Of a DNA stretch of 64,000 nucleotides, positions 887 through 3,202 are shown piece after piece. Below the pieces are notes generated by a model that saw only the letters and a program-made list of their open reading frames with translations, had not been told where the DNA came from and ran no database searches. The position numbers and the translations under genes were made by a program. This stretch comes from Escherichia phage JEP8. Every line of letters begins with the position of its first letter. The first letter of the stretch is position 1. The stretch lies in sequence record MT764208.1; one strand, given 5' to 3'.

Positions 887-2000
887 CATTATGTTCAGCG
901 CGGTTCGCTACTCCCGCGCCCGTTCTCTTGCGAACTGCTACATGTCACCATGTAGATCAGACTATATCACATTCTCATAGAGAATCCTGCCATTTCGAAT
1001 CGCTTGATTCTACTCTACTCGGTTCGTTACCCTTTCGATAGTCGTTGAACAACTGCATCTTTAAGCTCATTTTGATCAAACGGTGTTCTCTTACAGTACC
1101 CGCTATAATTCTTAGCAAAAGGTTTCTTCTTACCAAAGATCTCTTTTCCTGAATTATGTGCTTCAACAAGAAAATTCACCATTTCATCAAATGTGAAACT
1201 TGCAAATTTAGCATAAGTTTCATTACGTTTTGACATTATTTTACTCATAACTTCCGGTCGTTTAGACGCTGAATTTTCGCGTTTCTCGCCAGTATTAAAT
1301 GATACCAACTCACCGGAAACATATCTAGGATCATCACAACTAACTCTAAACCGATTTCCTTCATTATCCTTAACGATAACAGTATTCTTTAGCTTTTCTG
1401 CCATAGAATCAAGACCTTTTCGTATAGTGTCCTCATCAGCCCCGAAATATTTCTTTCCGCTCATATCGGTTCTGGCTTTTCCGGTCTTGTTTTCGGATAT
1501 TTTCAGTCTAACTTCCTCTCGCTTGGCTGGGTTATTGTCTCCAGCGAATGCATCTTTGGTTAACGCCTTCACTTTATCGTCATAAGATCCTCTAGAGATG
1601 AAAGCATATGCTCTCTTGCATTCACCGTTATTGAATATTAAGCACAATAACCGATGCGCCTCGACGTGGTCTTCAAACTTAAGCCTAACAAGATTCCATT
1701 TATCTAACCGATATTCAGGGAACATTGACTTCGGGCATATATGATGCACCTCGGAATATTCTTCACCCTGATACGGATTAGACACCAGTTTAATGTAGTC
1801 GTTTAATGCTTCCTCGTTATGTATTTCGTACTTTCTTAAAATGTCTTTCATCTCGCGCCTCCAATGTATATCAATATCTATATACATTATAAGACACGTT
1901 AGCTCAAAATGCAACTGCTGCTGATTGTCTCCTTAGAGATTTCCCAGCAATTAAGCAGGTTATTCGATCACTGTCACCAGTGAAAGCCCCATATCAGTTT
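887..2000 (-). mobile_element. Putative group I intron in gene 43 carrying an HNH homing endonuclease ORF
   Basis: Upstream exon ends ...ACU UCC CU (U at 2001); intervening sequence ends with G at 887; joining restores T-S-L-Y-P-S. GGGG at intron nt 11-14 can pair with exon CCCU (P1, G-U at splice site). P-like AAUUGCUGGGAAA and Q-like AAUCAGCAGC (UGCUG/CAGCA pairing), S-like GAUAUAGUC, and GNRA-capped hairpins (CACUG-GUGA-CAGUG; CUACAUG-GUGA-CAUGUAG). Confidence 0.6.
1027..1851 (-). CDS. HNH homing endonuclease (encoded inside the gene 43 intervening sequence)
   Basis: HNH motif EVHHICPKS...WNLVRL...EDHVEAH. ORF track 1027..1914 trimmed to the ATG at 1851 (MKDILRKYEIHNEE...), which has GGAGG 6 nt upstream. 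Confidence 0.8.
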   Translation of the reverse strand: MKDILRKYEIHNEEALNDYIKLVSNPYQGEEYSEVHHICPKSMFPEYRLDKWNLVRLKFEDHVEAHRLLCLIFNNGECKRAYAFISRGSYDDKVKALTKDAFAGDNNPAKREEVRLKISENKTGKARTDMSGKKYFGADEDTIRKGLDSMAEKLKNTVIVKDNEGNRFRVSCDDPRYVSGELVSFNTGEKRENSASKRPEVMSKIMSKRNETYAKFASFTFDEMVNFLVEAHNSGKEIFGKKKPFAKNYSGYCKRTPFDQNELKDAVVQRLSKG

Positions 2001-3202
2001 AGGGAAGTAAGGTCAAAGCTCATCATCCAACGGTAAGCATTCGGCACAGGTTCTTTTACAAATGCGCCTGGATAAGTCTGCTTAGGCTGTATCTTATTTT
2101 CCGGTACTACTTTACCCTCTGCTTTCAGAGATCCGAAGATAATAGCATCCCATACCTTCATCGGGTTATATACATGGTTAAACTTAATTTTCGCATAGAA
2201 ACATAGACTATACACAAGATCGATAAATCCACGCTTTTTATCAATCGCCAGCACACGGTCAACGTCGCCGATGTTATAATCGATGTAAAGTTGATGGTTG
2301 TCATCACGCAATTTCTTTAATGGACCATCATAATCAACCTTACCGATTCCTGTCTCATATTCAGCAACATAATCTAATGCATATGTTGGTTGAGTCGTAA
2401 AGCTAAATTTCTTGTACAGGTCAATATAATCAAGGCTTTCGATCCCCATGATCGTAAATGCTTCACGCTCGTTGCCAAAATCATCCTGTGAGATTCTGGA
2501 TTTAATCTTACCGCACGGGCTTAGACGGTTTGCCGTTCGACTTCCAAACTTATTCCCGATACGTTTAATGATATATGGAATATCGAATGTTTCTGTGTTC
2601 CAGCCAGTGAAACCAACGGGTCGGTTTTCCTCAAAGAATCGGATGTATTCTAACAGCAATTCATCTTCTGTGTCATAAACGTTATAAACAACGCGCTCCA
2701 CAATATCAGGTCGAAGAATAGACTTGCTTGCTTCCCAGATTTCACCGTTTTTTCCTTTCAAATCAAATACAAAGAAACGATCATGTAAGGAATCATAATG
2801 CGTAATTGCATCGATAGGATATTTCGCTTCTTCTGGTTTAGGAAATTCTGGGGCAGTGACCTCAATATCAACCCACGCTACACGGATTTTATTTCGGTCA
2901 TATCGAATCTCGCCTTTATATGTATCGGACAGATAGGAGATGATAAAATCATCCATCCCTAGTGCCTCTTGCCCCATTTCCCCCATCTTTTTACGCCATT
3001 TGTTGGCCTCGTTCATAGATGGGAATTTTTTAGCAATGCAAGGCTTGCCATAGATATCTTTATAATTCGTAACCATACCAGGCGCGGCATGATGAAATAA
3101 AGTTGGCGTATATTCAACGTAACGCTCTTGTTCTTGTCCAGCATCATCAATATAACGCTCGTAGATCTTATCACCCACTCGCTCACATGACAGAAAATAC
3201 AT
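2001..3202 (-). CDS. 43: DNA polymerase gp43, upstream (N-terminal) exon
   Basis: MYFLSCERVGDKIYERYIDD...DIEV...FDLTSL matches the T4 gp43 N-terminus and 3'-5' exonuclease region (DIEVT, YIDLY...). ATG at 3202 preceded by GGAGGA; the track start at 3232 is GTG. Frame stops with TGA (1994-1996) just past the proposed 5' splice site. Confidence 0.9.

Follow-up and report, generated by a model that had tools for sequence, protein, structure and literature searches.

Organization of the gene 43 locus

Gene 43 of Escherichia phage JEP8, which encodes the PolB-type replicative DNA polymerase (gp43), lies on the minus strand, with genes 62 and regA upstream of it, in the 64,000-nucleotide (nt) stretch of record MT764208.1 analyzed here (hereafter, the window), and its reading frame is interrupted in the catalytic motif A by an insert carrying an endonuclease gene. 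The gene 43 region was 100% identical to that of Phage ELT4 and 96–99% identical to those of RB49-like Krischvirus phages. Gene 43 of RB49 is uninterrupted (2679 nt), its intron-less site being TTAACAAGTCTGTATCCATCAATC, and an alignment with RB49 and four other intron-less Krischvirus genomes demonstrated that the insert is exactly 1114 nt, from window position 2000 to 887 on the minus strand. The following features were assigned to this locus.

2001..3202, minus strand: gene 43 exon 1, with its ATG at 3202-3200 and its end, ...GAC CTT ACT TCC CU, set by the intron-less allele of RB49; it encodes the N-terminal exonuclease region of gp43 and the first half of motif A (FDLTSL)
887..2000, minus strand: putative intron of group I, subgroup IA (1114 nt; first base A2000, last base G887)
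1994..1996, minus strand: in-frame UGA, two codons into the intron, in the P1 loop and ahead of the ribozyme core
1027..1851, minus strand: endonuclease open reading frame (ORF), 274 amino acids, with a GGAGG site at 1862-1858, in the P6 loop
1..886, minus strand: gene 43 exon 2, which starts with G followed by TAT CCA TCA..., equivalent to (L)YPSIIRQ, and continues beyond the start of the window

Removal of the insert joins ...UCC CU to G UAU CCA, and the resulting junction peptide, FDLTSLYPSIIRQ, matches that of RB49; the break is located inside the Leu codon of motif A, between FDLTSL and YPSII. An earlier note on this DNA, made from the sequence alone, had described this interruption, and its observation was confirmed to the base. 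When the reading frames were rechecked, the first gp43 ORF ended with ...RWMMSFDLTSL-N-TGA (stop at 1996-1994), the downstream frame read TAA-W-YPSIIRQVNISPETI with the TAA two codons before the junction, and joining U2001 to G886 created CUG (Leu) and FDLTSLYPSII, the same as in RB49 gp43. In addition, exon 2 lacks a start codon and a ribosome-binding site (RBS), as had been proposed: its first in-frame ATG is 23 codons past the junction (window 816), and the preceding 20 nt contain no Shine-Dalgarno sequence. Ribosomes translating exon 1 would be halted by the UGA before reaching the ribozyme core.

These features bear on the alternative of a genuine split, in which separate 43A and 43B polypeptides would assemble into the polymerase and a free-standing homing endonuclease gene would lie between their cistrons; Aeromonas phages 44RR and 25 have such an arrangement. 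GenBank records do give two separate 'DNA polymerase' coding sequences (CDSs) together with a hypothetical or HNH protein, and T4 relatives with a split gp43 have been documented (PMC2988022). However, the break falls within a codon of motif A, the second CDS starts at an internal ATG that varies between records (window 816 or 747) and thereby loses 23–46 conserved residues including YPSIIRQ, and covariation supports a complete group I core in the intervening RNA. Because the second cistron has no start signal, the split-polymerase alternative fails, and we consider it highly improbable. An intein and translational bypass were rejected on the basis of the in-frame stop codons in the insert and of its length of 1114 nt, which is far too long for bypass. 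A group II intron was also rejected, as the ORF list contained no reverse-transcriptase ORF and no Rfam group II match was obtained over the region. We assign a probability of roughly 0.92 to the reading that best explains the interruption of gene 43, namely a group I intron that splices, is mobile, and contains a homing endonuclease gene of its own.

Secondary-structure model of the intron RNA

The fold of the insert is that of a group I ribozyme of subgroup IA, in which all of the helices from P1 to P9.2 are present. The elements of the model, all on the minus strand, are as follows.

2004-2001 / 1990-1987: P1, formed by exon CCCU and the GGGG of the internal guide sequence; U2001·G1990 is the wobble pair at the 5' splice site
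1995-1991: GAUAU, which can pair with GUAUC of the 3' exon as P10
1982-1978 / 1973-1969: P2 (CACUG-GUGA-CAGUG)
1959-1955 / 990-986: P3
1949-1944 / 1924-1919: P4 (AAUUGCUGGGAAA / AAUCAGCAGC)
1939-1936 / 1931-1928: P5
1918-1909 / 1058-1049: P6, 10 bp
1050-1039: R element GUUCAACGACUA, which contains the P7 5' strand GACUA
1043-1039 / 964-960: P7 (GACUA/UAGUC), its 3' strand within GAUAUAGUC
~1038-1021: P7.1, a plausible pairing (UCG...CGA)
1010-1006 / 1001-997: P7.2
985-980 / 976-971: P8
955-949 / 944-938: P9 (CUACAUG-GUGA-CAUGUAG)
935-932 / 925-922: P9.1
920-914 / 903-897: P9.2
ending at the terminal G887: intron tail GAACAUAAUG
1909..1982 and 887..1038: 5' and 3' halves of the core, respectively

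P1 with the U·G pair at the splice site was formed in all eight relatives (8/8), its sequence following each host exon. The terminal omega G is located at 887, and a G also closes every related intron. All of the motifs listed in the earlier note (the GGGG, the hairpins, and the P-, Q-, and S-like sequences) were present, each mapping onto a group I helix, and the P7 5' strand that was absent from that list was located as GACUA at 1043-1039, within the last codons of the endonuclease ORF.

The last eight codons of this ORF (VVQRLSKG) cover the P6 3' strand, J6/7, the P7 5' strand, and the start of P7.1. The C terminus of I-LimII, encoded by the homologous intron of Dickeya phage LIMEstone1, is ...VQRLSKARPTTKRLI and is read in the same frame over the R element. 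Since VVQRLSKG is encoded by core helices and I-LimII uses the same frame, the ribozyme dictates the C-terminal residues of the ORF. The ORF and its GGAGG RBS were found as described previously, but the ORF is not free-standing: it is contained in the P6 loop, and the ribozyme core extends into its last codons. A ribosome completing the ORF would unfold the catalytic core; because of this overlap, endonuclease translation and ribozyme folding would be mutually exclusive on one RNA.

Covariance model, covariation, and homology of the core

A covariance-model scan had been suggested as a check of the fold. The Rfam model RF00028 aligned over its full length (positions 1–253) with the intron in the window, but the score was below the gathering score (31.1 versus 50 bits; E = 1e-5), with the 5' half mis-aligned into the ORF. 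For the ORF-truncated copy of phage JSE, the score was 42.9 bits (E = 1.5e-9), which also falls short of 50 bits. Two introns served as controls: that of RB3 nrdB, which is experimentally proven and contains the I-TevIII ORF, reached 34 bits, and the ORF-less one in gene 43B of phiAS4 reached 69.4 bits. Because a proven intron scores only 34 bits, the 50-bit threshold is not discriminating where a phage intron contains an ORF; the shortfall shows the limited sensitivity of the model for such introns and is not evidence opposing membership. A scan of the whole 64000-nt window at the Rfam gathering threshold gave no match, and a scan at the E-value threshold gave the gene 43 intron and no other family. 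A second group I intron was thus not detected in the window at either threshold.

Covariation was analyzed in alignments of introns from which the ORF had been excised, and the controls were the same alignments with the 3' partners slid by 1–3 columns. The first set consisted of nine related introns from six different host genes (gene 43 motif A, the Ackermannviridae polymerase, td, nrdB, primase-helicase, and gene 43B, together with two Acinetobacter phage introns). In this set, 91.3% of the cells were paired, compared with 38–45% in the slid controls, compensatory (both-sided) changes were observed in 43 of the 61 pairs, and none of 500 shuffles equaled any observed measure. RNAalifold, applied blind to the first set, recovered P2–P6, P7.2, P8, P9, P9.1, and P9.2. 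In the second set, which comprised six polymerase motif-A introns, 94.1% of the cells were paired versus 35–43% in the slid controls, and 34 of the 68 pairs, including pairs of the 10-bp P6, were compensatory. Compensatory changes were found in P2, P3, P5, P6, P7.2, P9.1, and P9.2. P7 is backed by conservation only, because GACUA/UAGUC was invariant across the alignments. Every helix able to vary is supported by both of these independent covariation analyses, and the controls showed that the agreement between motifs and helices is far beyond chance. The fold, the boundaries, and the covariation all support the group I reading given in the earlier note, although the idea itself is not new, the JSE copy having been noted by Petrov et al. 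2010.

BLAST searches with the two intron RNA halves matched hundreds of phage group I introns, and the 3' half was 80–81% identical to the T4/RB3 nrdB intron over 95 nt. Several of the related introns were observed in other gene contexts. In Proteus phage phiP4-3 (L006), td is split between the ...YQR and SCDVPLG... codons at 1613-2729 by a related intron, the 3' half of which is 81% identical to that of the window over 134 nt and the ORF of which is labelled only 'homing endonuclease'. Acinetobacter phage YMC13/03/R2096 (L015) carries two related ORF-less group I introns in tandem (~1395-1760 and ~1805-2090) directly upstream of the terminase large subunit CDS; neither is annotated, and the terminase gene is therefore probably mis-called. 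In Escherichia phage A7_1 (L007), a related intron lies at ~1925-2680 between a 'hypothetical protein' and a 'DNA primase/helicase'. It contains a plus-strand, endonuclease-like ORF beginning with MKRIKGFENYIITRRGDVY..., and the record instead annotates a minus-strand ORF over the ribozyme core.

Distribution of the intron in Krischvirus and recoding of the flanking exon

The insertion was found in 13 of the 66 matching phage records, representing 11 distinct phages, with 97–100% identity; most of the remaining ~50 matching records were Krischvirus genomes with an empty site. Within this genus, the carriers amount to 11 of roughly 55 genomes. This recurrence bears on the possibility that gene 43 is dead or that the interruption, which taken alone breaks the reading frame, is a chimeric assembly artifact. 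gp43 is essential in T4 biology, and the intron-carrying phages were isolated as viable lytic phages and propagated lytically. Because the same structure recurs in 13 independently sequenced records of viable phages, a pseudogene or an assembly artifact is excluded for practical purposes. In the five full-length copies, polymorphisms were concentrated in the ORF and both ribozyme halves were almost invariant; the ribozyme core appears to be under purifying selection relative to the ORF, which also argues against a dead gene.

The endonuclease ORF was intact in the window and in ECD7, JK32, and kvi, with few amino-acid changes among them. JSE has a deletion of ~650 bp inside the ORF, with the direct repeat AAGAAT at its boundaries. 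In the intact copy, AAGAAT was observed at both ends of the deleted stretch (JSE, L001, ~2040-2055; window 1700s to 1110s). This repeat suggests that the deletion arose by replication slippage or microhomology-mediated loss. In PTE-Eco09 (L021), the ORF (1050-1874) contains a TGC-to-TGA nonsense mutation, and the intron tail is CAUAUG versus CAUAAUG, one base having been lost 3 nt from the 3' splice site. The changes in PTE-Eco09 could be real decay or sequencing error.

The exon sequence next to the 5' splice site also distinguished the carriers.

2001..2011, minus strand: recoded exon tract, with six synonymous differences at −11, −9, −6, −5, −4, and −3

A comparison of six intron-plus genomes with five intron-minus genomes revealed CTT ACT TCC versus TTA ACA AGT as the fixed differences, and nothing else within 500 nt on either side. 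The switch of the Ser codon from AGT to TCC creates the CCCU needed by P1, and TCC-CT was present in all intron-plus relatives. The three changes outside the Ser codon match the exon of a metagenomic relative (L027), the first 20 intron bases of which are those of the window. Since these remaining changes match the L027 exon, the tract looks co-converted from a donor during homing. The idea that all six changes strengthen P1 was rejected, as only −4 and −3 lie inside P1 and the gain is modest (−5.0 versus −3.2 kcal/mol). Co-conversion from an L027-like donor would better explain the four changes outside P1. The patchy distribution and the exon tract together point to recent homing, and the use of one insertion site by introns of distant phages is a further indirect indication of it.

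The putative intron-encoded endonuclease and its expression signals

The ORF product matched PHROG 12434 'HNH endonuclease' (1.8e-130) and a second homing-endonuclease PHROG. No match to the 274-amino-acid protein was obtained in Pfam, NCBIfam, or a PDB sequence search. A large protein database contained 42 homologues, none of which (0/42) had a Pfam domain. In an alignment of 35 homologues, E34, H36, H37, P40, H62, and H66 were invariant and N53 nearly so, giving an H-H...N...H pattern. The AlphaFold model of the ORF product was locally confident (pLDDT 87.8, pTM 0.49), with an extended multi-domain chain; a Foldseek search of the PDB with this model gave nothing meaningful, probably owing to the extended chain. 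BLASTP of the ORF product against I-TevIII was not significant (E = 0.8). The conserved residues and the PHROG matches indicate that the protein is likely, but not established, to be a member of the HNH enzymes.

Upstream of the ORF, the following structure was found in the P6 loop.

1854..1898, minus strand: 18-bp hairpin in the P6 loop (minimum free energy structure, z = −2.4)

The lower stem of this hairpin (1898-1854) pairs the GGAGG RBS (1862-1858). A perfect T4-type late-promoter box, TATAAATA, was located 26–32 nt upstream of the endonuclease start codon in POP12 and the metagenomic relatives L025 and L026, and three further relatives have TAAATA in its place. The counterpart in the window is degenerate (TATAATGT), the homologous position being TATAATGTATATAG, which is part of the hairpin. 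A sigma-70 promoter scan upstream of the endonuclease gene found none; a candidate noticed by eye, TTGCAT-17-TATAAT, was dropped because its −35 hexamer matches at 3 of 6 positions and the scan minimum is 4 per hexamer. By analogy, the hairpin may regulate endonuclease expression in the manner of I-TevI.

The sequestered RBS, the degenerate late-promoter box, the decay of the endonuclease gene in JSE and PTE-Eco09, and the failure of any catalytic-domain model to recognize the enzyme would all fit an intron that splices but is an immobile passenger, with an inactive or unexpressed endonuclease and vertical descent only. On the other hand, the ORF is intact in four phages and its residues E34, H36, H37, H62, and H66 are invariant in the homologues. 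Sequestration of the RBS, moreover, reportedly regulates the active T4 enzymes I-TevI and MobE (Gibb and Edgell, cited in PMC2993671), and the patchy distribution and the co-converted tract speak for recent movement. We therefore regard an immobile passenger as rather unlikely, although it is the most serious competitor of the mobile intron.

Proposed pathway of splicing and homing

In a mobile, splicing intron, gene 43 and the intron would be transcribed as one pre-mRNA, on which ribosomes from exon 1 would stop at the intron UGA. The intron RNA would then fold into the P1–P9.2 ribozyme. Free guanosine would attack after U2001, held by the CCCU/GGGG P1, and exon 1 would in turn attack after the terminal G887. 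Ligation would leave an mRNA with a CUG Leu codon and an uninterrupted motif A (DLTSLYPS), to be translated into one full-length gp43 of ~100 kDa, with the tryptic junction peptide WMMSFDLTSLYPSIIR. In a mixed infection, the enzyme would cut an intron-less gene 43 near the motif A codons, and recombinational repair would copy in the intron and ~11 nt of the donor exon.

Occurrence of the intron at the same codon in other phages

A homologous intron with a P6-loop ORF was found at the same codon in Pectobacterium phage POP12, three metagenomic T4-like phages, and six members of Ackermannviridae infecting Dickeya (LIMEstone1, 'I-LimII'), Salmonella, E. coli, and Acinetobacter. The shared insertion point is after the second base of the Leu codon in D-x-x-S/A-L-Y-P. 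The intron RNA of the window was 69–74% identical to those of the motif-A relatives, whereas the N-terminal halves of the polymerases of the window and LIMEstone1 were 26% identical. The difference between these identities therefore argues for horizontal spread of a motif-A-specialized element. It is probable, although we hold this with clearly less confidence than the intron assignment, that one intron-endonuclease lineage specialized on PolB motif-A codons (D-x-x-S-L-Y-P, between L and Y) moved horizontally between phage families. The families in the proposed transfer are Straboviridae (E. coli, Pectobacterium) and Ackermannviridae (Dickeya, Salmonella, E. coli, Acinetobacter).

In a previous study, 'no convincing evidence' was reported for cross-cluster intron transfer (Petrov et al. 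2010, PMC2993671). If the proposal is true, the motif-A lineage would be a cross-cluster intron transfer of the kind that was lacking in that study. The identical codon in another phage family also makes this element a convenient system for cross-family intron transfer and endonuclease target recognition. The endonuclease of PhiPA3 is reported to act as a weapon against co-infecting phages; by analogy, the present enzyme might serve as a weapon against co-infecting intron-less phages.

Two metagenomic T4-like contigs, L024 and L025 (3470-5800), were observed to carry the motif-A intron with an exon 2 that ends after ~93 codons (...ILARRKK*). PolB motifs B and C are missing from the region beyond this exon, where small ORFs extend over at least 2 kb. 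These contigs may have an extra split of the 43A/43B type near its position in Aeromonas phages.

Annotation of gene 43 in carrier genomes

None of the six inspected carrier records (ELT4, ECD7, JSE, JK32, kvi, and PTE-Eco09; L001, L003, L004, and L020-L022) annotates the intron or a joined CDS. These records show gp43 as two truncated proteins, the second with differing and incorrect start codons; judging from the sequences, the product is very probably a single spliced polymerase. The main value of the finding lies in the correction of this annotation and in a clean natural example of intron homing; knowledge of group I introns or of T4-type replication is unchanged by it. The Krischvirus set spans the whole homing cycle, from vacant sites through an intact intron that still has its endonuclease gene to endonuclease genes that decayed independently in two phages, and the evidence for cross-family spread adds to its value.

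Comparison with known systems

The JSE gene 43 element has been noted as a putative group I intron, and 'a former HEG' was inferred for it (Petrov et al. 2010, Virol J 7:292, PMC2993671). JSE and the window share this element, inserted at the identical nucleotide, and their ribozyme halves and exon flanks are ~98% identical. In contrast to the window, where the 274-amino-acid ORF is intact, JSE has lost ~650 bp of the ORF and has one mismatch in P9.2. A literature search found no description of the intact Krischvirus version and no splicing test of it.

The LIMEstone1 homologue was named I-LimII and likewise described as putative (Adriaenssens et al. 2012, PMC3296691). Its intron has the identical insertion point in the Leu codon of SLYP and a P6 ORF running through the R element with a C-terminal VQRLSK; the intron RNAs are 73% and the endonucleases 37% identical. 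On the other hand, P7.1 and P9.1 are longer in LIMEstone1, the ORF extends further into P7.1, and a second intron is located downstream. I-LimII (ORF179) is filed under GIY-YIG in Table 1 of PMC3296691, and GenBank NC_019925 points to an HNH-type enzyme. The H-H...N...H pattern shared with the ORF of the window, together with the 37% identity, indicates that I-LimII is HNH-type.

In phage CB7, HNH-bearing introns in the polymerase gene splice as judged by reverse transcription PCR (PMC7344957). The T4/RB3 nrdB intron, which is experimentally self-splicing, resembles the intron of the window in being of subgroup IA with P7.1/P7.2 and P9.1/P9.2, in having an ORF for an HNH-type enzyme (characterized for I-TevIII, probable for the window) in the P6 loop, and in the decay of its endonuclease gene in some phages, T4 itself among them. 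It differs in its host gene, which encodes the ribonucleotide reductase small subunit, and in its endonuclease: no homology to I-TevIII was detected outside the short HNH motif, and I-TevIII matches Pfam HNH_3, whereas the ORF of the window does not. The T4 td intron with I-TevI likewise has its endonuclease gene in the P6 loop and its RBS hidden in a hairpin, and relatives of the present intron have a late-promoter box just upstream of the gene, as in td. However, I-TevI is a GIY-YIG enzyme, and the late-promoter box of the window is degenerate.

A self-splicing group I intron in gene 43B of Aeromonas phage 25 was reportedly described by Petrov, Ratnayaka and Karam (J Mol Biol, 2010). This intron, represented in our comparison by that of phiAS4 at the same 43B position, is also a gp43 group I intron of a T4 relative with a homologous core. 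In contrast to the intron of the window, it is located at motif B (between KILINSLYGA and LGN), has neither an ORF nor P2, and is presumed to be mobilized by a neighboring free-standing endonuclease, in a polymerase that is also split into 43A and 43B. The gene 43 element of the window is thus of a well-known kind and had already been noted in the sister phage JSE.

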